From Candidatus Brennerbacteria bacterium (GTDB lineage Bacteria; Patescibacteriota; Minisyncoccia; UBA6257; GWB1-50-10), in contig JACPEK010000005.1 in the NCBI GenBank assembly GCA_016183535.1, positions 1 through 57,189 of the forward strand: a stretch of 57,189 nucleotides of DNA, given 5' to 3'. The position numbers and the translations under genes were made by a program. A model generated the notes under the pieces. That model made no database searches. It worked only from the letters and a program-made list of their open reading frames with translations, and was not told the DNA's origin. The first letter of the stretch is position 1. Each line of letters begins with the position of its first letter. This document shows positions 24,303-47,363 of the stretch, piece by piece.

Positions 24303-25797
<1,495 letters not shown>

Positions 25798-25950
25798 AAA
25801 GTCTGGCCGAAGCCAAACTTAAAAATATCTAGGACAACGAAAAAAGTTTTCGTTTCTGGTATGCCCGTTTCCGTTGCTGCAACGAAAAGCGGGCTTTTAA
25901 TTTATCAATGGACGCGCTATGTAAACGCACGTTTTCCATAGGCGAGGACT

Positions 25951-36073: not shown

Positions 36074-36170
36074 ATATGGATTATCGGCGATTATTTTTCG
36101 ATTTTCAATTGCGGGTGGCCTGACCCCCATATGTTAGACACAAAGGTCGAAGTGGATATACCCTTGTGTC

Positions 36171-36428
36171 ATGAAGAAAACACATCGTATCGCTCCTGAG
36201 GTGCGGGAACAGATACTCAAACGCATTAAAGAGGAGGGAATACCGGTGGCGGCCGCGGCGAAAGACGCGGGCATCTCGGAAGCCACCATATACGGCTGGC
36301 TCGGGAAGGGGGTGAAGAGCGCTCCGACGATCGGCGAACTCGTGCGCGTGAAGCGCCAGAATGAGGAGCTCCTCGCCCTCGTGGGCGAGCTCACCCTCAA
36401 GATGTCCCAGTCCCAAAAAAAGGGTTGA
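36171..36428 (+). CDS. IS3-family transposase OrfA (HTH)
   Basis: 85 aa. HTH GISEATIYGWL and a leucine-zipper-like tail. Confidence 0.85.
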   Translation: MKKTHRIAPEVREQILKRIKEEGIPVAAAAKDAGISEATIYGWLGKGVKSAPTIGELVRVKRQNEELLALVGELTLKMSQSQKKG

Positions 36429-37234
36429 TCAAACGTCAGGGAAAAACGAGGTGGATGCTCGCGAGGGAACTCGGCATCTCCCGCGCCTCCCTCTACTACG
36501 TCTCGAAGCAGTCGCCGAAGGATTGGGCGCTCAAGGAACGGATCAGTGCGATATTGCAGGAGCATCCCTCCTGCGGCTTCCGGAGAGTGGCGCTGGAGCT
36601 CCGCATCAACAAAAAAAGAGCCCAACGTGTGATGAGGATTTTTGGCATGCGAGCCCATCGCCGGAGGGGCAGAAAGCCAAGGAAAACCGGCCTTGCGAGC
36701 ATCCTCTACCCCAACCTCCTCTCGACCAACTATCCGAGAGGACTGAACGACATCTGGGTTGCCGATTTCACGTATATCCCGTACCGGGGGAAGTTCCTGT
36801 ATTTGGCGACGGTCATGGATCTCTTCGCACGGGAGATCGTGGGTGCCGCGGTCATGGCAAACCACTCTGTGCCGCTCGTCTTGCAGGCGCTCTTCGCCGC
36901 CACTCTGCATCACCCGCGTCCCGACGTCTTCCATTCAGACAACGGGAGAGAGTATGGCGCAACGATATTCACGCGGGCGCTCACGGAGCTTGGCATTGCG
37001 ATCTCACGAAGTGCAAAGGCATCACCGTGGCAGAACGGATATCAGGAATCGTTCTACTCGCAGTTCAAGGTGGATCTCGGTGACCCTGAGCGCTTCAAGA
37101 CCCTGGGGGAACTCGTCTATGAGATCCATCGCCTTATCTGGGACTACAACCATCGGAGAATCCACTCCGTGCTCAAAATGCCGCCGAAACTGTTCGCCAA
37201 TCGCTACCAGAAACTCTTAGAAAAGGTGTCTTAA
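36425..37234 (+). CDS. IS3-family transposase OrfB (DDE/rve integrase core)
   Basis: WVADFTYI (D), HSDNGREYG (D), PWQNGYQESF (E). Probably expressed as an OrfAB fusion. Confidence 0.9.
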   Translation: MIKRQGKTRWMLARELGISRASLYYVSKQSPKDWALKERISAILQEHPSCGFRRVALELRINKKRAQRVMRIFGMRAHRRRGRKPRKTGLASILYPNLLSTNYPRGLNDIWVADFTYIPYRGKFLYLATVMDLFAREIVGAAVMANHSVPLVLQALFAATLHHPRPDVFHSDNGREYGATIFTRALTELGIAISRSAKASPWQNGYQESFYSQFKVDLGDPERFKTLGELVYEIHRLIWDYNHRRIHSVLKMPPKLFANRYQKLLEKVS

Positions 37235-37315
37235 GTTTGGGGGTCTTTACAGTGGTAGGAATCACTCTCATCATTGCTTTAGCCACGTCAGATTAAAATC
37301 TAGAGTTTCCGGAAC

Positions 37316-37435
37316 ATGACTTGGTATCAAATTCTCACAGTGGTAGTGATTGGAGCATTGGTTTTCTATATTTGGTCGAAGATTTCCAACCTTGAAGATC
37401 GAGTTGAGAAGCTCGAAAAAGACGATAGACCATAG
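37316..37435 (+). CDS. possible small membrane protein (39 aa)
   Basis: MTWYQILTVVVIGALVFYIWSKISNLEDRVEKLEKDDRP: one TM helix plus a charged tail. Below the ORF-track cutoff. A truncated paralog-like tail (VVGITLIIALATSD*) abuts the IS right end. Confidence 0.25.
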   Translation: MTWYQILTVVVIGALVFYIWSKISNLEDRVEKLEKDDRP

Positions 37436-37689
37436 TTTCTATTGGGGTTACTGTTTCTCTTTCCGTCAATTTTTCCCTCCTTATACCGTCTTGCGCCTCA
37501 TACTAAGCTGCCCTCATACGATGCACGTTATGCGTTTCCCTCCAAAGCTTCTTTTCATAAAAGGTTCTAACCATTCGCGCTGAATTGCTACTCCCTCGTG
37601 AGTGGCGATTTCTTGACGCACCCCGCTCGGCGTGGGAAAGTGAAGTCCGACACTAACCGATTCTTAACAAAAATATAAAGGGGAAGAAA

Positions 37690-38070
37690 TTGGAACTTAC
37701 CAAAGACCAAGCTAAAGAAGTAATCGAAACAGCCCTTTCCTACGTCGGTCACCCCTATGATTCAAAAGAGTTCAATTGTGTGGGCTTCGTCCGTACCGTC
37801 TACCGCACAATCGGAATTAAAATCTCGCCCCTCAAAAGCTGTGCGCCGCCCGCCGAGCTCAACTTATCGGCCGAGCAGGCAAAGGACCTTCCGGTCGGCC
37901 ACCTGATGTTTCTGAAAGACAGGGACGATCCGAGAAAAGAAAGGAGCTGGACTCACGTAGTCATAATACTCACGAAGGAGACGTGCATTCATTGCTCGCT
38001 CTTCTTCGGGCGAAAGGTCACGATTTCCTCTTTTGCAGAGATGTATTGTAAATATGACGTTGTGATATGA
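37690..38070 (+). CDS. NlpC/P60 (C40) family cysteine peptidase-like protein
   Basis: FNCVGFVRTVY (catalytic Cys context) and WTHVVIIL (His). TTG start preceded by AAGGGG. Confidence 0.65.
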   Translation: MELTKDQAKEVIETALSYVGHPYDSKEFNCVGFVRTVYRTIGIKISPLKSCAPPAELNLSAEQAKDLPVGHLMFLKDRDDPRKERSWTHVVIILTKETCIHCSLFFGRKVTISSFAEMYCKYDVVI

Positions 38071-38072
38071 CA

Positions 38073-38100
38073 AACCACCCGAAAATGTAGGGTGGTTTTT
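38073..38100 (+). terminator. rho-independent terminator
   Basis: AACCACCC-gaaaatgta-GGGTGGTT followed by TTT. Confidence 0.6.
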
Positions 38101-38131
38101 CATTACCACCCCCACCCCCTATACTGAAAGC

Positions 38132-38596
38132 ATGAATGGGGATGGCGAAAAAATCAGCTTCGAAAAGGCCACCGTGGAAGACGTGGACCAATTCGTCACG
38201 CTTGAGAAGAAGGTCGTCGGCCTCAAAACGTATTCGGGAATTACCGGTAAGGAAGAAGCGAAGACAGAGATAGAGCAGAACGAGGTCTATTTTATTAAGA
38301 AAGAGGATAAGGTTGTCGGGACTACCGAGTATCAGATACAAGGACCCGATGCCGCCTATCTCGGCGGGTTAGTTGTTGATCCTGAATTTTGGGGGCAGGG
38401 AATTGCGCGGCAGGCAATAGAATTTCGACTTGATAAGCTTCGAGACATAAAGCGTGTTTGGCTCGTGACCCACCCGCACAACAGTAAAATCATCCGGCTC
38501 TATCTTTCCTACAGTTTTATCGTGGAAGCATGGAAAGATAACTACTATGGAGATGGGGAACCGCGCCTTGTGCTTGCGCGAGAGCGCTCCATCTAA
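38132..38596 (+). CDS. GNAT family N-acetyltransferase
   Basis: LVVDPEFWGQGIARQAIEF acetyl-CoA binding motif (Q/RxxGxG/A). Confidence 0.8.
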   Translation: MNGDGEKISFEKATVEDVDQFVTLEKKVVGLKTYSGITGKEEAKTEIEQNEVYFIKKEDKVVGTTEYQIQGPDAAYLGGLVVDPEFWGQGIARQAIEFRLDKLRDIKRVWLVTHPHNSKIIRLYLSYSFIVEAWKDNYYGDGEPRLVLARERSI

Positions 38597-38630
38597 AGTG
38601 AAATAAAACTGTCTCTCATCTTGTACTACT

Positions 38631-38840
38631 ATGACAGGGATGGGAGAACCGACTTCGGACGAGGATATCGTGAAACGGGTGCAGGAGGGAGATGCCGAAG
38701 CATTCGGCGTTTTAGTTGAGCGGTATGAAGCCCGGCTTCTTCGGTACGCACGGCGGTTTCTTCTCGAAGTAGCCGACGCCGAGGATCTCGTCCAGGAGGT
38801 CTTTATCAGCGCCTATGAGAACATACGAAGCTTTGACGCG
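38631..38840 (+). pseudogene. ECF-type sigma-70 factor, 5' fragment truncated by IS insertion
   Basis: The first 70 codons encode region 2 (DAEAFGVLVERYEARLLRYARRFL...AEDLVQEVFISAYENIRSFDA). The reading frame then runs into the IS left end at 38841. No region 4 is found downstream. Confidence 0.7.
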
Positions 38841-39121
38841 TGGCCTGACCCCCATATATTAGACACAAAGGTCGAAGTGAATATACCCTTGTGTCATGAA
38901 GAAAACATACCGCACCGCTCCCGAAGTGAAGGAGCAGATACTGAAGCGAATCAAAGAAGAAGGGATCCTGGTCTCTCAGGCTGCGAAAGAGCACGGCCTG
39001 AATCCCGCCACCATATACAACTGGCTTGGGAGAGGGGTGAAAGGCACTCCCACAATCGGAGAACTCGTTCGCCTCAAACGCCTGAATGAGGAGCTCCTCG
39101 CCCTCGTGGGCGAGCTCACCC
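38841..39121 (+). mobile_element. 5' fragment of a second, diverged IS3-family element (left IR plus most of orfA)
   Basis: Same terminal TGGCCTGACCCCCATAT and an orfA homolog (ORF 38896..39219). Similarity to the first copy ends after GAGCTCACCCTC at about 39121. No orfB follows. Confidence 0.75.
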
Positions 39122-39251
39122 TCGTGCGCGGGAAGGTAGGAGCGCTGCCATCCACGAAAACCACTCTCCTAAAAAATGAAAAGCTCTATGCATACTTCAT
39201 AGAGCTTTCGAATCAATGAAGCTTGCTTCATGAGCGACCTGTCCGTCCGCA

Positions 39252-39647
39252 TTAGCGGAGCAGGACCATCTTCTTCGTCGCGGTGAAGGCGTTCGCTCCG
39301 ACGCTACGGTCGGAGTGCGCTTCAATCCGCACAAAGTAGATGCCGCTCGGGAGTCCGGAGGCATCCCACGTTGTCCGGTGGGTGCCGGCCGAGACCTCCT
39401 CGTCAATCAATGTTGCTACCTCTTGGCCAATTACGTTGTACACCGCAAGGCGTATATGGCTTCGGTCGGGAAGCGTAAACTCGATCGTCGTACTCGGATT
39501 GAACGGGTTCGGGTAGTTCTGATGCAGTGAGTAGCTAGCGGGGAGCAGTGAGTAACCGTCCTCTTCCACCGACACCGGCATATCGATCGCCCCGTCCACG
39601 CGGTAGAGGGTGTTGTAGGTTCCCACCAAAAGCGATTTGTCTTTCAC
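39252..39647 (-). pseudogene. 5'-truncated gene fragment encoding a T9SS type-A C-terminal sorting domain
   Basis: LHQNYPNPFNPSTTIEFTLPDRSHIRLAVYNVIGQEV...GLPSGIYFVRIE. Near-duplicate of the C-terminus of the 46059..47363 gene. Only 131 codons and no signal peptide. Confidence 0.6.
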
Positions 39648-39781
39648 TGCGAGCGAGAAGACGGCGAGAACGGAATCCGAGACAATCTGCGTTCACGCTT
39701 TCATGTCGTACTAAAATTTTTGCCGGAAAATCGAGTTTGGTATAAATTTTAAGCGCGTATATAATTTCCTTAACATACAAT

Positions 39782-40681
39782 ATGACGTCTACTCCCTATA
39801 TTAAAGTTGAACTTAGTGATCGGATTTTCTGCTTTTATACGCTCCTCAATGCAGGCGGATACTCTCAAGGACACGAGGTACATCCCATCAGAAGGAGAGT
39901 GGTCCGTGCCGCACGAGAGCGTCTCACGGGTGAAGTTACAAAAGTAATAGAGGAGCTTCTCGTGAAACCTGGAGCCACACAACAATACTGGTTTCCATAC
40001 CGCACCTGGGTGCTGTGTCATGGTCAGCCTTCGGAGTTTTCTGAACTATCGGAAAAATGGAAAAAAATCCTCGATGAAAACAGTGGAGAAAAATTGCGGG
40101 CCGTATTGCAAGCAATATGGTCCGATTTTGGCATATCTGAATTATGGGAACGTGAAAGAGCGGAATATCTCCGCGCGGAAAGGCAATGCGAAGAAAACGC
40201 ACGCAACGCGGTGCAAATTTCAATGGATTACCTTCGTCTACGCAGAGAGGAAATTACTTTCAAAAATTTCGTTGTCATACCGAATTTTCTTGACGAGTAC
40301 CACCGCGGCATAGGACCGTTGATTGAAAATACCGCGTACGCGCTCATGGGTCCTTCTCCAGATCCAAATGACCCATTTCCGGAAGAGCGGATTCAGCATG
40401 AATTTTTGCACTCAATCATAAATCCTGTGGTGGGAAAAATATTTCATGATTCCTCTCACCAAGAGAAATCAAAACTGCGGGAGACGCTCATCCATGGTAT
40501 TGTCCTCAAGACTCACCGGAATGACCAGAATTATGTGAGGCATAAGCGCGAAGATCTGATCGGCAAAAAAATAAATGTGGTGCCTGTTCTCAAAGTCTTC
40601 GAGGAATATGAAAACACTGGAGGAAGTTTTGAAGAATTTGTGAAATTGGAAATGCAAAAAATAAAAGAGGCGTGCCGTTGA
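39782..40681 (+). CDS. hypothetical protein with HExxH motif (putative zinc metallopeptidase)
   Basis: 299 aa. IQHEFLHSIINP contains HEFLH. Convergent with the rSAM/peptide unit. Confidence 0.5.
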   Translation: MTSTPYIKVELSDRIFCFYTLLNAGGYSQGHEVHPIRRRVVRAARERLTGEVTKVIEELLVKPGATQQYWFPYRTWVLCHGQPSEFSELSEKWKKILDENSGEKLRAVLQAIWSDFGISELWERERAEYLRAERQCEENARNAVQISMDYLRLRREEITFKNFVVIPNFLDEYHRGIGPLIENTAYALMGPSPDPNDPFPEERIQHEFLHSIINPVVGKIFHDSSHQEKSKLRETLIHGIVLKTHRNDQNYVRHKREDLIGKKINVVPVLKVFEEYENTGGSFEEFVKLEMQKIKEACR

Positions 40682-40687
40682 GGCGCG

Positions 40688-40703
40688 CCTCTTGCGCAAG
40701 AGG
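40688..40703. terminator. 16-nt palindrome between convergent genes
   Basis: CCTCTTGCGCAAGAGG, immediately after both stop codons. Confidence 0.45.
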
Positions 40704-40704
40704 G

Positions 40705-40827
40705 CTATTTTACGTCATCGTTGCATGTGCAATCGTCGCCACAGCTTATGTCCGCGGGACATCCGAGCGCCACGCTATCGAGCTCGGGCACAGAGACGTC
40801 AATGATGACGATGTTCTCGCTATCCAT
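40705..40827 (-). CDS. 40-aa Cys/Asp-rich peptide, candidate RiPP precursor
   Basis: My own translation gives MDSENIVIIDVSVPELDSVALGCPADISCGDDCTCNDDVK. AAAGGAGGAACTT precedes the ATG. Starts 14 nt after the rSAM stop. Not in the ORF track (<60 aa). Confidence 0.6.
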   Translation of the reverse strand: MDSENIVIIDVSVPELDSVALGCPADISCGDDCTCNDDVK

Positions 40828-40841
40828 AAGTTCCTCCTTTT

Positions 40842-42092
40842 TTATTTTAGATAAGCACCTTCCGCCACGCGCTTTATGATTCTTGGAATGATCGCGCGCA
40901 TGAAAGCGCAGTGAGTGGGATCCGGAGTAAACAAATCTCCGGTTTTGGTTAGCCCTTTATGGGCACATCCGCCACGACACAGGTTCCGAACGAAACAATC
41001 GTGACACTGTTTCATATTCGTCGTGCGCCGACTTGCAAGATACTCCGCCTTGCCGCCGTCGACTACAAAGCCGTCCCCAATGTTTCCGATGAAGAACGAC
41101 GGCCATTTTTTGTTCAATCCATCGTCGACTTCACTACACGCAGTAAGTTCGCCTCGGTGATTTACCACCAAAGTCGAACCTCCCATCGGACCACAGTAAG
41201 AGCGATGAGTTGCACCTTGGAAAAAATACGTTAATTCACCCACCCGCACTTTTTTCGAGGCTCTTCTTGCCCATTCCAAAGCATGGATAATAGCGTCCAC
41301 CCATTGTTCTACCTCTATCGGTGCCGCACAATTGATGTTTTTTCCTCTTCCCAATCCATACATAGGTTCAAGATGTATCCGGTCAACGCCGAGATCTTCG
41401 AAATATTCGAGAATCTCTCCAATGCGTGGAATGGAATCGCTTGTTAACGTTGTCCTCACCGAAAGAGGGTTGGATGATCTTTTCTTCCAAATACGCAAAG
41501 ATCTCTCGACGTGCGAGGAAGAGGGAAAACCACCTTTGAGCGGGCGTAATCTATCTTGTATGGACGGTGGGCCGTCAATTGAGAATGTGATGCCAACATT
41601 GTAATCAATCAACCACTCCAACAGCGTTACCGACATTACGCCGGAAGTTGTGAGCGTCCATCGAACGCGGGTATTGTACTTCGCCACCACGTGCTTTATT
41701 ACTTGGGCGGCCGAAGTCGGTTCACCTGCTCCGAACAACGTTACGCGCGGATTTTTATGGTTCAGCGCGAGATAACAAGCGATAGCCTTGTCGGCCAATT
41801 CAACGCTCATAAGCTCGTTACTCGCTCCCGTGTTCGCGTAACAATATACACAACGCAACGGACAACGCTTACTGAGAAGCAACATCAAGTTCGACAGCTT
41901 CTGCGGCGCGGGGATAACTTCCGAACACACTTCACGAAAGAATCCCGCCTGTATAAGGTTTTCCATGACTTCAGCACATAGATTCGACGAACGAGCTACT
42001 TTTTTAACGCCTTGCCCGTAGATCAGGAAACAATGACCATCGGGCACTATTATTGTGTCGCCGATAACAGTCGGAAATTCTATCGTTCTCAT
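40842..42092 (-). CDS. radical SAM enzyme with C-terminal SPASM domain (peptide-modifying maturase-like)
   Basis: CPLRCVYC (CxxxCxxC), GGSTLVVNHRGELTACSE, CHDCFVRNLCRGGC (CX2CX5CX3C). AAGGAG lies 8 nt before the ATG. Confidence 0.9.
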   Translation of the reverse strand: MRTIEFPTVIGDTIIVPDGHCFLIYGQGVKKVARSSNLCAEVMENLIQAGFFREVCSEVIPAPQKLSNLMLLLSKRCPLRCVYCYANTGASNELMSVELADKAIACYLALNHKNPRVTLFGAGEPTSAAQVIKHVVAKYNTRVRWTLTTSGVMSVTLLEWLIDYNVGITFSIDGPPSIQDRLRPLKGGFPSSSHVERSLRIWKKRSSNPLSVRTTLTSDSIPRIGEILEYFEDLGVDRIHLEPMYGLGRGKNINCAAPIEVEQWVDAIIHALEWARRASKKVRVGELTYFFQGATHRSYCGPMGGSTLVVNHRGELTACSEVDDGLNKKWPSFFIGNIGDGFVVDGGKAEYLASRRTTNMKQCHDCFVRNLCRGGCAHKGLTKTGDLFTPDPTHCAFMRAIIPRIIKRVAEGAYLK

Positions 42093-42122
42093 CTCTTATT
42101 CTCCTTTTTAATTTCTTTTGAA

Positions 42123-42128
42123 ATTATA
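42123..42128 (-). promoter_or_regulatory. candidate -10 element for the rSAM/peptide unit
   Basis: Minus strand reads ...TTGTTGTTTTTTTGTTGTATAATTTC, with TATAAT about 30 nt upstream of the ATG. The -35 is not clear. Confidence 0.3.
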
Positions 42129-42197
42129 CAACAAAAAAACAACAAGAAAACAAAACACTCTGTTTTTTTGCTACAAGGATTTTGAATAAACCAATGC

Positions 42198-42230
42198 AAA
42201 AGGGCTGATATGAAATTTCATATCAGCCCT
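42198..42230 (-). terminator. rho-independent terminator after proS
   Basis: AGGGCTGATATGAAATTTCATATCAGCCCT perfect hairpin followed by TTT on the minus strand. Confidence 0.65.
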
Positions 42231-42306
42231 TTGATAAATCTACTTCACGAGCACGTGCCAGTCCGCGGCTAGCGGAGGAAGACCATCTTTTTCGCGATGA
42301 TCGAAT

Positions 42307-43773
42307 TCAGTATGCCTTCGCGAAAATAACCCTCCGAGGAGAATCTCCTCCACATCTCACGCATTTCCCCTGCTCATCCTCGCTGTTGAGAGGAATGCAA
42401 CGGATTGTCGCGAGCGTTTCTTTTTTGATTTGAGATTCACACGCAACATCACCACACCAATGCGAGTAGAGGAATCCTCCAGAGCCGACTGCCTTTTCTT
42501 TGAATTCGTCCCAAGAATTTACTTTCTTGGAATGCTCATTCTGGCGTTGCAATGCTTTTTCAAAAAGATTCTTTTGAATCGCAGCTAGTGTATTCTCCAC
42601 GTGAGCAACGACGCCCACATCATCCACTAGAACCTTCTCGCCAGTATCTCTCCTTACTACTATCAAAGAATTAGCTGCAAGCTCCTTTGGGCCTATTTCG
42701 ATGCGGATTGGCACTCCTTTTTTCTCCCATTCGAAAAACTTGGCGCCCACTCTTCCCTCTCCCTCATCAATCTTCACGGTAATGCCGAGTTGTTCTTGAA
42801 GCTTAGCGGCAACCGTATAAGCTCTCTGCACTATCTCCTTTCCACCCACTTCGACTGCCACTGGAATGATAACAGCGTGAAGTGCGGCGATTTTAGGAGG
42901 AATAATGACTCCTTTGTCATCGCCATGCACCATGATGAGTGCACCGATAATCCGAGTGCTTAATCCCCAGCTCGTTTGCCACACAAATTGTTCCTCTCCT
43001 CCCTGGTCAGAGAATTTCACGTCAAATGCTTTTGCGAAATTCTGCCCGAGCATATGAGAAGTCGCGGCCTGAAGTGCTTTTCCATCTTGCATAAGGGCCT
43101 CGAGGCAAGTAGTGTAAAGTGCGCCGGCAAATTTCTCCTGCTCACTTTTTTTCCCTATTACAACGGGAATGGCAAGGTGGTCCTCAACGAAACGGCGATA
43201 CACCTCGATCATCCGCATTGTCATCTCGCCTGCCTCCTCTTCAGTACTGTGAGCTGTGTGGCCTTCTTGCCAAAGAAACTCGGTGGTCCTCAAGAACGGG
43301 CGCGGACGCATTTCCCAACGAACCACGTTCGCCCACTGGTTTATGAGAAGCGGCAAATCCCGGTAGGAGTGAATCCACCTTTGAAAAGAAGAGTAGATAA
43401 TGGTCTCCGAGGTTGGCCGCACCACCAGAGGTTCTTCAAGAAGCCCCGTCGGGACTAGAACTCCCTCCTCATTCGCCTCAAGACGATGATGGGTGACAAC
43501 GGCGCATTCCTTGGCAAATCCTTCAACATGCTTGGCTTCCTTCTCTATGAGGTTCTTTGGAATAAATAACGGGAAATAAGCATTTTGAATCCCGAGAACT
43601 TTAAAAGCGGAACCAAGTACTTTTTGGATATTTTCCCATAACGCATAACCGTTGGGCCTGAACACCATACAACCTCGGACAGAGGAGCTGTCCGCCAGTT
43701 CAGCGGCTTCAATAAGATCTAGATACCATCTGGAGTAATCCTCCGTCCTTTTGGTTATTTTTCTGTTGTTCAT
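42307..43773 (-). CDS. proS: prolyl-tRNA synthetase, archaeal/eukaryote-like type
   Basis: 488 aa. YSRWY, RPTSET, FLWQEGHTAH, SHMLGQNF, WQTSWGLSTR, HGDDKG, C-terminal Zn-domain ending ...AKAY. Confidence 0.95.
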   Translation of the reverse strand: MNNRKITKRTEDYSRWYLDLIEAAELADSSSVRGCMVFRPNGYALWENIQKVLGSAFKVLGIQNAYFPLFIPKNLIEKEAKHVEGFAKECAVVTHHRLEANEEGVLVPTGLLEEPLVVRPTSETIIYSSFQRWIHSYRDLPLLINQWANVVRWEMRPRPFLRTTEFLWQEGHTAHSTEEEAGEMTMRMIEVYRRFVEDHLAIPVVIGKKSEQEKFAGALYTTCLEALMQDGKALQAATSHMLGQNFAKAFDVKFSDQGGEEQFVWQTSWGLSTRIIGALIMVHGDDKGVIIPPKIAALHAVIIPVAVEVGGKEIVQRAYTVAAKLQEQLGITVKIDEGEGRVGAKFFEWEKKGVPIRIEIGPKELAANSLIVVRRDTGEKVLVDDVGVVAHVENTLAAIQKNLFEKALQRQNEHSKKVNSWDEFKEKAVGSGGFLYSHWCGDVACESQIKKETLATIRCIPLNSEDEQGKCVRCGGDSPRRVIFAKAY

Positions 43774-43846
43774 GACTTTTCCTCTGATTTAGATGGGAGT
43801 TAAATTTCTTTTTTGATTATAAAACTATATTTCTTTTCAGTCAAGT

Positions 43847-44395
43847 CTAACTGCTGTTGGCATCCTTGTTCCTTGGAGAAATGAAGTCTTTATAAATCTG
43901 CGATTCCATCGGTCCACGACTATTTTGATACTTCCCTCCATACAGTCGTATTTTCCCTTTTGGAACCCAAAAGGTCACTTGACCAATAAGCATGTTGCGA
44001 TAAATCCTTATTTTTTGCACCGTGTGCAACTGGAGAGTCCATTGATTGACCGAACCGATATCAATGAGATCGGCGGTAATATGGATAAACAGTCCCACTC
44101 TCCCAATGGAAGATCTTCCTCTTATAATCGGGACATAATGGTTGCTCCCCATAATTTCTTCTGTGTGCCCCAAGTATAGCCTCCTTGGGTCTAAAACGAG
44201 GCCGTTGCGAGGAATTTCTATTAGATCAACCTTTTGCTTCAATTTGGGATTCAGCAATCGATTTCTGTATACCTTGATAAACCTTCCCAACCGAAAATTA
44301 TAGGAATTTGGATTTAATTGCCTTCTCCGAAACGGGGAGATTATTATTCTTCCTTTTTGCACTTCCTTTTCTATTTCTTTTCCGGTAAGTATCAT
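43847..44395 (-). CDS. dCTP deaminase (Dcd/dUTPase-fold) family paralog, catalytic Glu replaced by Gln
   Basis: MILTGKEIEKEV..., NPNSYNFRLG, GRSSIGRVGLFIHITADLIDIGSVNQWTLQL. Canonical Dcd has ...TLE/VLE at this position. Confidence 0.8.
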   Translation of the reverse strand: MILTGKEIEKEVQKGRIIISPFRRRQLNPNSYNFRLGRFIKVYRNRLLNPKLKQKVDLIEIPRNGLVLDPRRLYLGHTEEIMGSNHYVPIIRGRSSIGRVGLFIHITADLIDIGSVNQWTLQLHTVQKIRIYRNMLIGQVTFWVPKGKIRLYGGKYQNSRGPMESQIYKDFISPRNKDANSS

Positions 44396-44922
44396 GGGCG
44401 TTTTCGATTCAATTCTTTATATATCTTGCTCGTTCTCGGTTTCGAATATCTGCCGTATTCCCCTCGATAAAGAAGTTTTTTACTCCCATGCATAGTCCAA
44501 AAGCTTACCTGGCCGATTTTCATAAGTGGATACACCATCAAAGGTTGTACGGCATGCAATTCGAGTGTCCATGCATGTTCCGACCCCACATGCCCTAGAT
44601 CTGCTGTAATTTGAAGGTAAAGGCCTAGCCTCCCAACAGAAGATCTTCCACTTAAAATGGTTACGTAGAAATCACTTCCTATTCTTTCAAAAGTGTGTCC
44701 TAAATACAACTTACCTGGTTCCAAAATAGATCCACGCTCGGTGAGTTTTATTTTTCTGTATCGGAGCGGCTTCTTAAGATTAGAGCCTTTTTTAATTTCG
44801 AACAGCGTCCTCCCCAACCGATAGTTATAGCTATTCGGATTCACGTTTTCCTCTATAAATGGGGATATACATATCCGCCCACGTTTCACTTCTTTTTTTA
44901 TTTCTTCGCCGGTAAGAATCAT
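44392..44922 (-). CDS. dCTP deaminase (Dcd/dUTPase-fold) family protein
   Basis: MILTGEEIKKEV..., NPNSYNYRLG, GRSSVGRLGLYLQITADLGHVGSEHAWTLEL (Glu retained). ATGA overlap with the downstream paralog. Confidence 0.8.
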   Translation of the reverse strand: MILTGEEIKKEVKRGRICISPFIEENVNPNSYNYRLGRTLFEIKKGSNLKKPLRYRKIKLTERGSILEPGKLYLGHTFERIGSDFYVTILSGRSSVGRLGLYLQITADLGHVGSEHAWTLELHAVQPLMVYPLMKIGQVSFWTMHGSKKLLYRGEYGRYSKPRTSKIYKELNRKRP

Positions 44923-44931
44923 TTGGTTATT

Positions 44932-45969
44932 TTAGAAAAAATCCCTCCATCCTTGTTCGGCTTTTGCCTGTTTGGAAAACTGAGGCTCATCCGATGAATA
45001 CTCCTCAAGATGCGCGGTCAACCATTCTGTTGCGAGTGTCGCTTTTCCAAATTCTTCTTTCTCATACAAATTTGCTAGATGGATAACCTCCTCTGTTGTT
45101 AATGAAAGTTTCTTCTTAAGATAATTAAGTCCTTGGAGATAGAGTTTAAGGATTCGTCCCTTATCTCTATCTGAGGGCTTGATATTTTCTCTCAGTATCA
45201 CGACAACACAAGAAAGTGCATCAGAAAACTTTCTAGCATATCTCCCCTCTATAGGGGCGAGGAGATTTGCCGCTGTTGCTTCGATGGAACTTCCTAAATC
45301 GTGTACGCGCGAAATCATCGTGCTCACTCCAAAACCCAGTTCCACCGCAAGCGCCTTTCCACTAGATGCGTTTTCCGCAAGAACGATATTCCCTATGACT
45401 CTGAACTCCCCTGTTTTACTATTTATCATGGAGAAATTAAAATTTCTCCCTTTTATTTCCTGTGTACCGTAACGATGACGATACGTGTCGATATTCCCGT
45501 GAACAACGTTTAGCTTTGGAGTGTCTTGATCGCTTTGAATTTGTGATATGAAATCACCATCTTCAGAAGCTATATCAATTCTTATGCGATCCTTTTCAAT
45601 CCCTAGTTGATACAAGTATTTGCAAGTGTCATGAAAAAGTTCAGCTACGCGATTTGGCGGAGCTATAATGCCGGTAGCAGTAAAATACGAACTCCAATCG
45701 GGAATAATCTCATCATTGAGAAGAACTTTCGCGTTTTGCGTCCTCAAACATTTTTGCACAAGAAAAAAGCCAGGGGTTGGTATGCCGCCATAAAGGAGGA
45801 GAGACTTGAAAACGTTTGTTGTCGAGCCGATAAATCTTACGCTGTGATCAGCGGAAGATACGAGAGAGCTCGGCGGGTATTCAATATACCCGAGGTCGCC
45901 AAAGTGTTTTCTAAACACGCTCGAAACGAGAAGGGTTTGTTCTTTCAGCCAGTTTTTATCCTTCCTCAT
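44932..45969 (-). CDS. alanyl-tRNA-synthetase-like class IIc catalytic core, stand-alone (no editing or C-Ala domains)
   Basis: By-eye alignment to the E. coli AlaRS N-terminus. FRKHFGDLGYIEYPPSSLVSSAD matches [30 protein letters not shown] matches SQRCVRA. SYFTATGII matches TFFEMLGNF. IGNIVLAE matches IWNIVFMQ. VELGFGVSTMISRV matches VDTGMGLERIAAVL. ATG at 45969 chosen because the ORF-track start (46152) overlaps the upstream gene and its terminator. Confidence 0.7.
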   Translation of the reverse strand: MRKDKNWLKEQTLLVSSVFRKHFGDLGYIEYPPSSLVSSADHSVRFIGSTTNVFKSLLLYGGIPTPGFFLVQKCLRTQNAKVLLNDEIIPDWSSYFTATGIIAPPNRVAELFHDTCKYLYQLGIEKDRIRIDIASEDGDFISQIQSDQDTPKLNVVHGNIDTYRHRYGTQEIKGRNFNFSMINSKTGEFRVIGNIVLAENASSGKALAVELGFGVSTMISRVHDLGSSIEATAANLLAPIEGRYARKFSDALSCVVVILRENIKPSDRDKGRILKLYLQGLNYLKKKLSLTTEEVIHLANLYEKEEFGKATLATEWLTAHLEEYSSDEPQFSKQAKAEQGWRDFF

Positions 45970-46010
45970 TAAAGTTATAACGTTCCTTAAATTATGCCTT
46001 GAGCACGCGG

Positions 46011-46042
46011 AAACAAAAAGCCCCATGCGTACTGCACGGGGC
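46011..46042 (-). terminator. rho-independent terminator after the BNR/T9SS gene
   Basis: Minus strand: AGCCCCGTGCAGTACGCATGGGGCT followed by TTTTTGTTT. Confidence 0.5.
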
Positions 46043-46058
46043 TTCTGAAACAATAAAT

Positions 46059-47363
46059 CTACTTCATGAGGACCATCTTCTTCGTCATGGTGAACGCGCC
46101 TGCGTTCATTCTGGCGAAGTAGATGCCGCTCGGGAGTCCGGAGGCGTCCCACGTTGTCCGGTGGGTGCCGGCGGAGACCTCCTCGTCAACCAACATCACA
46201 ACTTCCTGGCCGAGCGCATTGTACACTGTGAGGCGTACATGACTTCGGTCGGGAAGCGTAAACTCGATCGTCGTACTCGGATTGAACGGGTTCGGATAGT
46301 TCTGCTTGAGAACAAATTCGGTTGGAACCGAATTGTCTTCAACCTTGACGATGTCGTCCCACTTCGCCATCCAAACACCGTCGTTGGTGCCGATCGCAAG
46401 CGTGAGCGCATCAACCCTCACAATCGAGATGGGGATAAACCCCGTGAGGTTGAGCGGTTTCCATTCCTCCTCGCTCACTCTTTGATACAGAATGGGGTCT
46501 CCGGGATTTGGAGTAACCCCCGCTATGGTGCCAAAGGGCGCAGGTCCGACGTAGACCACTTCCCCGAGTTCTTCAGGGACACCGTCAACGTGTTGCCAGG
46601 TGTCCCCTTCATTCGAGGAATGGAAGATGCCGCCTCCGTCCGTCGCGACATAGACACCTCGGTACCAACCGACAGTGTCCGCGGCAATACTCAAAATATT
46701 AGTAGAGGTCAGGCCGCTACTCACATTTTTCCACGTTTCGCCCCTATCTGTAGAACGGAGCACGCCCTTTGCGGAATCCTTCACCCCGGAGTTCAATCCT
46801 ATATACAGGTATCCAGACGGGGCTTCCGTCATCCTCTCGGTATAATACTTTATAAGAGGATGATTGGGAGCGAGAATAACTTCCCATGTCTCTCCATCGT
46901 CGATGGATTTGTACAATCCATCACCGCCAGCAAAAACCGTTCCGTTCTTCGTCGCAAAAAGCATTACAAGAGATTCATTTTCCGGATCCCATACATGTCG
47001 CCAGCTTTCTCCACGGTCGGTGGATTTGAATATACCATTCCATGCGGCGACAAGAATACCCCCGTCTTTTGTCTTTACAATGCCTTCGACAGAAGACGGG
47101 TGGAGGTCAAGCCCATACGAGGGGCCGATCTCATAGAAATCGCTCTTGTTCTGGGACGCGTACAGGTAGAGATTCGTCCCGGCGAAGATGAGTGAATCGT
47201 CGTAAACGAGGAGATGCCGCGCATTCACCTGTTGACCTTTGAGGTTCCAGGGCCATGCCCAGGTAAAGGTGATTTTTCTGGCCGAGGTTTGCGCCCATCC
47301 CTGAAACGGAACAGACGCGAGGAGCATCGCGAAGATGCCCGCAAGAATCCATAACCGTTTCAT
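46059..47363 (-). CDS. BNR/Asp-box repeat protein with T9SS type-A C-terminal sorting domain
   Basis: Signal peptide. Asp-boxes STDRGESW, SIDDGETW, STDRGETW, SNEGDTW. C-terminus NYPNPFNPSTTIEFTLPDRSHVRLTVYNALGQEV...GIYFARM. AAAGAGG lies upstream of the ATG. Confidence 0.85.
   Translation of the reverse strand: MKRLWILAGIFAMLLASVPFQGWAQTSARKITFTWAWPWNLKGQQVNARHLLVYDDSLIFAGTNLYLYASQNKSDFYEIGPSYGLDLHPSSVEGIVKTKDGGILVAAWNGIFKSTDRGESWRHVWDPENESLVMLFATKNGTVFAGGDGLYKSIDDGETWEVILAPNHPLIKYYTERMTEAPSGYLYIGLNSGVKDSAKGVLRSTDRGETWKNVSSGLTSTNILSIAADTVGWYRGVYVATDGGGIFHSSNEGDTWQHVDGVPEELGEVVYVGPAPFGTIAGVTPNPGDPILYQRVSEEEWKPLNLTGFIPISIVRVDALTLAIGTNDGVWMAKWDDIVKVEDNSVPTEFVLKQNYPNPFNPSTTIEFTLPDRSHVRLTVYNALGQEVVMLVDEEVSAGTHRTTWDASGLPSGIYFARMNAGAFTMTKKMVLMK

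Follow-up and report, generated by a model that had tools for sequence, protein, structure and literature searches.

We analyzed a 57,189-nucleotide (nt) stretch of DNA from a Candidatus Brennerbacteria bacterium (GenBank assembly GCA_016183535.1, contig JACPEK010000005.1, positions 1 to 57,189), which as a whole is termed the window. The analysis centers on a compact locus in which the gene of a radical S-adenosylmethionine (rSAM) enzyme of the SPASM type is followed, on the minus strand, by a very short gene encoding a Cys- and Asp-rich peptide, and faces a convergent gene for a zincin-like protein. The three genes are a candidate cassette for a peptide made by the ribosome and modified after translation (RiPP), and their features are as follows.

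40842..42092, minus strand: predicted radical SAM/SPASM peptide maturase, 416 amino acids (aa)
C77/C81/C84 of the maturase: SAM-cluster motif (CX3CX2C; CPLRCVYC begins at C77)
C300, C319, C363, C366, C372, C376 and C395 of the maturase: the seven SPASM cysteines
C363-C376 of the maturase: SPASM signature CHDCFVRNLCRGGC
42123..42128, minus strand: TATAAT box, read from the sequence, 30 nt before the maturase ATG
40833..40840, minus strand: ribosome-binding site AAAGGAGG, 5 nt before the peptide ATG and within the 14-nt gap behind the maturase gene
40705..40827, minus strand: precursor peptide gene, 40 aa plus stop, an open reading frame (ORF) read from the sequence and encoding MDSENIVIIDVSVPELDSVALGCPADISCGDDCTCNDDVK
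40762-40827, minus strand: precursor leader, approximately residues 1-22, the exact boundary between leader and core being our estimate
40708-40761, minus strand: precursor core, residues 23-40, CPADISCGDDCTCNDDVK
40688..40703, no strand assigned: perfect 16-nt palindrome CCTCTTGCGCAAGAGG, within the 23-nt gap separating the convergent stop codons
39782..40681, plus strand: convergent HExxH...E protein, 299 aa, zincin-like and distantly DUF4932-like, the proposed leader peptidase

The TAA stop of the maturase gene occupies positions 40844-40842 and is followed by the gap (40841-40828) and the ATG of the peptide gene. A first-pass annotation of the window had proposed the minus-strand peptide, its start 14 nt past the rSAM stop behind a ribosome-binding site, the palindrome that follows it, the CPLRCVYC motif at about residue 77 of the enzyme and the SPASM signature; all of these can be read directly from the sequence as they were described. 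Because the TATAAT box sits past a long hairpin (42201-42230), which comes after the gene of a prolyl-tRNA synthetase (ProRS), the arrangement suggests that the maturase and the peptide form their own transcription unit. A promoter scan was silent on the minus strand, and the evidence for this box is weak. The palindrome is reported by the scan on the plus strand only, and comparable sites turn up in shuffled sequence as often as expected by chance; it could be a terminator hairpin that serves both convergent transcripts.

Related loci, referred to by L numbers, were collected as DNA fetched from assemblies, species-representative genomes and metagenomes, and the peptide was counted in 46 of them, those with 200 nt or more of DNA downstream of the enzyme gene. 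The same kind of small ORF lies on the same strand, immediately 3' of the rSAM homologue, in 44 of these, over a range of roughly 32-100% enzyme identity. The first-pass annotation had pointed out that the precursor lies downstream rather than upstream of its maturase, and it would have given up the proposal if the ORF were not kept beside rSAM homologues; the ORF is kept, and its downstream position is shared by the same 44 loci. The two exceptions, L010 (Myxococcota) and L109, have divergent yet Cys/Asp-rich peptides at this position. Alignments reveal a conserved leader, x-D-I-x-I-x-D-A-x-L-x-E-L, and a conserved core, C-P-x-(D/H)-V-x-C-G-D-D-C-(T/S)-C-x-x-D. L16, C29, G30, D31, D32, C33 and C35 are invariant in the alignment of 34 peptide sequences, and E15, C23 and D38 are conserved in at least 90% of them. 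For the core (16 codons, 11 loci), saturation is seen at synonymous sites (mean proportion of synonymous differences, pS, 0.94) and the mean proportion of nonsynonymous differences, pN, is 0.14, which gives a pN/pS of about 0.15. Thus, selection acts on the frame of the peptide and not on that of the antisense ORF 40672..40854, which had appeared in the ORF listing and is a by-product. The linkage of the two genes across genomes and the conserved leader and core are together what characterizes a RiPP precursor and its maturase, and the frame is under purifying selection.

A profile search with the peptide in 5.8 billion proteins recovered about 40 unnamed proteins of 37-62 aa, with E-values down to 8.5e-16, and an exhaustive search of 1.84 billion cluster representatives with a hidden Markov model (HMM) of the peptide yielded 27 hits at E <= 0.001, about 23 of which are short peptides. 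Moreover, gene callers independently predicted the peptide gene on other contigs, including a 40-aa gene at the same position in L165. In favor of a chance ORF, or of a remnant beside an rSAM enzyme that acts on another substrate, the peptide lies below the usual gene-calling length and has no match at E <= 1 in NCBIfam or Pfam. However, such a non-functional ORF is hardly compatible with conservation in 44 of 46 loci, with a pN/pS of 0.15 at saturated synonymous sites, with a strong ribosome-binding site or with the profile hits and independent gene calls, and we assign it next to no probability. It is already refuted by the comparative data, which argue that the peptide ORF is a real gene and a member of a real, small and unannotated family.

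The family extends to a distant clade (L008, L009 and L111-L121), whose enzymes are about 33% identical to that of the window. There, the core is longer, CPGDDCNxDxGGC(L)PADxSCGQDC(SCPSD), and the C-x-x-D unit is repeated four to five times: CPGDDCNTDTGGCLPADSSCGQDCSCPSD (CPGD-DCNTD-..-CLPAD-..-CGQD-CSCPSD). Two tandem precursor genes are found in L099 (6251-6600) and in L100 (4883-5230). They have a common leader, MDDIRIVDA.LEELSS, and differ in their cores, ...TTCTNDVEDDPCPGDFCNNDN and ...CPCGDNAEVGCGDDCTCNDQD, and it may be that more than one core is processed by one maturase in these loci. L011, L013 and L014 (Aenigmatarchaeota and others, at most 31% identity) were excluded from the family because no Cys/Asp-rich peptide lies downstream of the enzyme, and L012 (likewise at most 31%) was left out because too little downstream DNA is available.

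Searches with the enzyme of the window retrieve about 30 close homologues, which are unnamed, metagenomic and 39-72% identical, followed by a gap to sequences of at most 30% identity. The ten cysteines of the SAM-cluster motif and the SPASM region are invariant in 24 homologues and G314 is nearly so (at least 90%); the spacing of the SPASM motif is C300-X13-G314-X4-C319, C363-X2-C366-X5-C372-X3-C376 and C395. The HMM searches that the first-pass annotation had called for place the enzyme in the Radical SAM superfamily (PF04055, 45 bits against a gathering score of 29.5), but the Pfam SPASM model alone stays below its cut-off (13.7 versus 21.5 bits). It is the seven-Cys motif and the fold match to the SPASM enzymes CteB and anaerobic sulfatase-maturating enzyme (anSME) that assign it to the SPASM subfamily, whose defining signature, CX9-15GX4C...CX2CX5CX3C...C, holds two auxiliary [4Fe-4S] clusters. 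In NCBIfam, the best-ranked match is the PapB family ranthipeptide maturase (NF047865, 132.5 bits versus a cut-off of 340), and the second is QhpD (TIGR03906, 121.5 versus 453). The Nif11-peptide maturase (103 bits), the SCIFF maturase (TIGR03974, 96 versus 425), HxsB (83 bits) and, in eighth place, anSME (TIGR03942, 70 versus 349) score lower. Since every one of these scores is far below the curated cut-off, the enzyme belongs to none of the families. The closest solved structure by sequence is CteB (5WGG, 1.8e-30), and anSME is the second. An AlphaFold2 (AF2) model built on the family alignment has a mean confidence (pLDDT) of 87.3 and superposes on CteB, anSME and SuiB. Foldseek ranks CteB first (E 6.5e-20, TM score 0.72), followed by the radical SAM protein ChlB and anSME. 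Residues 1-60 of the model form four strands (8-10, 13-17, 22-26 and 31-35) and one helix (40-48) at a pLDDT of about 90, and a poorly ordered linker follows this β-rich domain. We also considered that the locus might belong to a defense system. This was rejected, because the PADLOC matches of the enzyme amount to generic rSAM noise (viperin) and the neighbors have none.

The peptide core offers an Asp at position +3 from three of its four cysteines: D32 is invariant, D38 is conserved in at least 90% and D26 is usually Asp. No aromatic residue occurs in the core, which argues against cyclophane or Lys-Trp chemistry. The seven SPASM cysteines match those of CteB, with its open iron site on auxiliary cluster I, unlike anSME, which has eight. 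Both points are among the arguments for a product of the ranthipeptide type, in which a Cys sulfur is joined to the β- or γ-carbon of an acceptor; the affinities to PapB, QhpD and CteB and the CxxD spacing lend this class indirect support. Thioethers between Cys and Asp are suggested because the two best HMM matches, PapB and QhpD, both form them, and because the CxxD spacing is conserved and is repeated in the distant clade. QhpD makes Cys-Asp (Cβ) and Cys-Glu (Cγ) thioethers (PMC8326336). PapB forms Cys-Xn-Asp rings for n = 0-6 (PMC9413430), and rings of the CX2D type are therefore feasible.

The same cassette might instead yield a sactipeptide-type product, in which the Cys sulfur is linked to the α-carbons of the acceptors. 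Sactisynthases are likewise rSAM/SPASM or twitch enzymes acting on Cys-rich cores, the enzyme weakly matches StsB, GggB and SkfB-type families, and α versus β/γ regiochemistry cannot be told apart by sequence alone. We nevertheless consider this outcome unlikely. The head of the HMM ranking is held by PapB, QhpD and the Nif11-peptide and SCIFF maturases, and the first named sactipeptide maturase, StsB, is only thirteenth (59.6 bits); the closest structure is the ranthisynthase CteB, and a conserved Asp at a fixed +3 from Cys is the hallmark of PapB- and QhpD-type acceptors.

Another rSAM modification altogether, be it formylglycine formation, epimerization or a different side-chain reaction, would lead to a metal-binding peptide or a cofactor-like molecule. 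SPASM enzymes do catalyze many reactions, the second-best match among solved structures is anSME, the four Cys and five Asp of the core would bind metals as a chelator, and an intracellular role would be consistent with a window that encodes no exporter. We judge this quite improbable, since anSME reaches only 70 bits against its cut-off of 349, the cysteines of the SPASM region number seven and not eight, and the layout of leader and protease is that of a processed RiPP. Among the neighboring ORFs scanned beside the cassette there is neither a sulfatase gene nor a gene for a subunit of quinohemoprotein amine dehydrogenase (QHNDH). The first-pass annotation had stated that no exporter is visible; this holds for the window but not for the relatives L001, L110 and L120, which have an ABC transporter nearby. 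It had also named a grouping with anaerobic sulfatase or cofactor maturases as an outcome that would speak against a thioether RiPP; the enzyme groups with neither, PapB and QhpD coming first and anSME eighth in the ranking, with CteB as the closest structure.

In the convergent 299-aa protein, the HExxH motif (HEFLH) corresponds to residues 206-210. The protein has 19 homologues at 31-57% identity, almost all of which are unnamed; NCBI names among them are 'DUF4932 domain-containing protein' in a Patescibacteria metagenome-assembled genome (MAG) and 'hypothetical protein' in Candidatus Portnoybacteria. H206, E207, H210, R233 and E234 are invariant in 17 homologues, and weak matches to PF16286 (DUF4932; best E 9e-7) are seen for 10 of the 17. 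In the AF2 model (pLDDT 91.8), two strands lead into the HExxH helix, which is followed by a helix carrying E234, and this predicted strand-helix-helix order fits that expected for a gluzincin. The weak Foldseek matches of the model are to M61, thermolysin-like and M36 proteases (E about 0.5, probability 0.5-0.6). No obvious signal peptide could be recognized on reading the sequence. By tblastn, a gene of this type adjoins the rSAM/peptide pair in L165 and in 22 other loci, among them several near-identical contigs, and it is oriented either convergently downstream or upstream on the same strand. L165, an independent contig and a copy of the window's own contig, contains only the rSAM, peptide and zincin genes.

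Other sub-clades have other peptidases in the vicinity of the pair. The clade of about 33% identity has a different convergent protein with an invariant HELTH...E motif and a weak match to Peptidase_MA_2. Common descent of the two families was considered and rejected, as hhalign finds no similarity between them, and they are treated as non-orthologous replacements. Moreover, both an M16 and an S41 peptidase are encoded near the pair in L096 and L097, an M16 homologue in L003, L095 and L100, and an S41 homologue in L102. That unrelated peptidases recurrently take the place of the zincin points to leader removal, and we regard this as the strongest indirect evidence for it. The earlier proposal that the HExxH protein is the leader peptidase, still a putative role, thus gains support both from its co-conservation with the pair and from these unrelated peptidases, and we infer that the 299-aa protein is a cytoplasmic zincin that removes the leader. 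Members of the family often end in a conserved K-(E/K)-A-C-(R/L) tail; in the window, the C-terminus of the protein is encoded at 40657-40681. That a C-terminal Cys near the zinc site serves as a latency element of the cysteine-switch type is pure speculation.

On this basis, the following sequence of events can be proposed. The 40-aa precursor, which has a strong ribosome-binding site to itself, would be translated right behind the maturase. Its leader, consisting of a hydrophobic strand and the D-A-x-L-x-E-L motif, would dock the precursor on the rSAM/SPASM enzyme, possibly on the short N-terminal β-rich domain. SAM would then be cleaved at the C77/C81/C84 cluster and a hydrogen atom abstracted from a side chain of the core. 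Assisted by two auxiliary [4Fe-4S] clusters, the enzyme would then form intramolecular thioethers between the cysteines of the core and acceptor carbons, most likely the β-carbons of the conserved +3 Asp residues (C23-D26, C29-D32 and C35-D38). The outcome would be a ranthipeptide-type product, small, knotted and acidic, from which the convergent cytoplasmic HExxH...E zincin would finally cut off the leader.

Several observations weigh against this proposal. The first acceptor position is His rather than Asp in several homologues (CPGH, CPTH), and C33 is left without a conserved Asp partner. The bit scores of the enzyme for PapB, QhpD and the SCIFF maturase fall far short of the curated cut-offs, and both the thioether chemistry and the Cys-Asp pairing are deductions from relatedness and spacing. 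The first-pass annotation had suggested that a 75-aa N-terminal extension of the enzyme could be a RiPP recognition element (RRE), and this could not be confirmed: residues 1-66 of 14 homologues match neither PqqD/RRE nor any other Pfam family, the model lacks a three-helix winged helix, and a profile search of sequences in the Protein Data Bank (PDB) with the N-terminal domain gave no meaningful match. The 299-aa protein of the window itself has no Pfam match, its model finds nothing in the PDB by Foldseek at E <= 0.001 (best E 0.45), and the window encodes no exporter. Weighing these points, we consider an rSAM-modified RiPP cassette very probable at this locus. A thioether as the modification is probable, whereas β-carbons of Asp as the acceptors fall slightly short of an even chance. 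The reading as a whole, that of a compact three-gene, ranthipeptide-like thioether RiPP cassette, appears likely.

The relatives are mostly MAGs of Patescibacteria, also known as the candidate phyla radiation (CPR), and comprise Wolfebacteria, Azambacteria, Portnoybacteria, Kazan, Saccharibacteria and Paceibacterota. Genome-resolved relatives at 45-49% identity come from Candidatus Wolfebacteria, Saccharibacteria and candidate division Kazan, and further hosts, known from protein records, are Azambacteria, Portnoybacteria and a 'Patescibacteria group' MAG. The hosts of the clade of about 33% identity are Patescibacteria UBA6257, Paceibacterota and one Myxococcota MAG. In the closest relatives, L001 and L002 (67% identity), the cassette adjoins proteins with sorting domains of the type IX secretion system (T9SS), as it does in the window. 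A second radical SAM gene lies near the cassette in some loci of the Patescibacteria type, L095 (3568-4671), L097 (384-1817), L114 (123-1199) and L115 (5718-7103), that of L097 matching Pfam SPASM, and these genes hint at clusters that are larger or have been duplicated.

In the window, the cassette is part of a compositional island (39700-46150). The G+C content at third codon positions (GC3) is 0.39-0.50 in the genes between 39.8 and 46.1 kb, compared with mostly 0.62-0.73 in sampled backbone genes. The island is bracketed by direct repeats (39262-39521 and 46069-46304, 89% identity), each of which is the 3' end of a gene with a T9SS tail. In the region 36112-39123, the island adjoins an IS3-family element (orfA 36171-36428, orfB 36425-37234; 204 bits to transpos_IS3) and another, truncated copy of the element's left end (38837-39123, 82-86% identity). 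It is plausible that the cassette was acquired horizontally in the host of the window, a bacterium with T9SS-type sorting domains. The truncated IS3 copy is fused to, and interrupts, a gene for an extracytoplasmic function (ECF) sigma factor that starts at 38631, and it is followed by a fragment of a T9SS-tail gene at 39252-39647. Further features of the island, and the ribosomal RNA (rRNA) gene of the window, are the following.

42307-43773, minus strand: type-I (archaeal/eukaryote-like) ProRS (TIGR00408, 560 bits), in the low-GC island directly upstream of the cassette
43847-44922, minus strand: tandem pair of dCTP-deaminase-like paralogues (182 and 176 aa) with a 4-nt overlap
44932-46152, minus strand: 406-aa ORF, true start probably further in, GC3 0.40, the second lowest in the island
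24303-25799, minus strand: full-length bacterial 16S rRNA gene (Rfam, 1172 bits)

The second dCTP-deaminase-like paralogue is below the cut-off of TIGR02274 (75.8 versus 92.8 bits), and neither paralogue matches PADLOC. The 406-aa ORF has no match in Pfam, NCBIfam, PADLOC or PDB sequences. The ProRS, the dCTP-deaminase paralogues, the 406-aa ORF and the NlpC/P60 and GNAT genes were considered as members of the cassette and rejected, as none of them has a homologue in any related locus.

For Patescibacteria, reports usually list few biosynthetic gene clusters or none. One survey reports no such clusters at all in the Patescibacteria MAGs that it covered (PMC11613949). We found no curated model or specific name for the precursor, maturase or protease family, and literature searches on ranthipeptides in Patescibacteria, on radical SAM RiPPs in the CPR, on DUF4932 by itself and on the CGDDC motif returned no description of the cassette family. 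The three genes are thus most likely a new precursor/maturase/protease family among the Cys-rich RiPPs modified by rSAM/SPASM enzymes. What sets it apart is a CX2D spacing, a core both tiny and acidic, a non-canonical N-terminal domain, a partner of the DUF4932-like kind and a distribution centered on the CPR. What has been found is a solid new RiPP family and not a new principle. More tentatively, and as a possibility that we hold with clear reserve, the locus could be the founding example of an undescribed, CPR-centered RiPP class: a very small and strongly acidic peptide with three to four nested or in-line Cys-X2-Asp thioethers, made by a SPASM enzyme that has a novel short leader-binding domain in place of an RRE, the cassette having been acquired horizontally in the host of the window. 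If so, its function could be in signaling, metal capture or host interaction of episymbiotic bacteria. If the CX2D thioethers are real, the ranthipeptides would gain a ring size and a scaffold that are new, and peptide engineers would gain a compact relative of PapB, a maturase already in use for peptide macrocyclization. The short N-terminal domain, if it is indeed no RRE, could be a new solution to leader recognition. The cassette is in any case a minimal, testable three-gene RiPP unit of about 2.3 kb, and a conserved modified peptide in Patescibacteria offers a handle on the biology of reduced episymbionts.

In its apparent mode of action, the locus resembles QhpD as well as two ranthipeptide systems, PapB/PapA and CteB/CteA, yet it fails every curated threshold for membership. 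PapB/PapA, which makes freyrasin in Paenibacillus polymyxa, is similar in that an rSAM/SPASM maturase acts on a Cys/Asp-rich core with a repeated Cys-Xn-Asp unit, and PapB is the best NCBIfam match of the enzyme in the window. The differences are a CX2D instead of a CX3D spacing, four Cys instead of six motifs, an unrelated precursor family whose gene lies downstream of the enzyme, a short non-canonical N-terminal domain and a DUF4932-like zincin partner; moreover, the hosts are mostly Patescibacteria here but Firmicutes there. CteB/CteA, the system of the SCIFF peptide thermocellin, provides the closest solved structure (5WGG/5WHY), and shares with the window seven SPASM cysteines and a leader-dependent, Cys-rich precursor of about 40-45 aa. 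However, CteB forms a Cys-Thr γ-thioether and has a full winged-helix RRE, and the peptide of the window has four Cys, in contrast to the six-Cys-in-forty-five arrangement of SCIFF, and matched nothing in NCBIfam or Pfam at E <= 1, including any SCIFF precursor model that these libraries contain.

QhpD, which acts in the maturation of QhpC, the γ subunit of QHNDH, is the second-best HMM match. Its substrate is an enzyme subunit, whereas the substrate proposed here is a 40-aa peptide of leader and core, which has no Trp for a cysteine tryptophylquinone (CTQ) cofactor. Finally, the 299-aa protein resembles zincins of the DUF4932 (PF16286) and Peptidase_MA types in its HExxH motif and in the invariant Glu about 28 residues later on the next helix. 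It differs from them in that it matches neither Pfam nor, significantly, any PDB structure, and it stands beside them as a putative protease.

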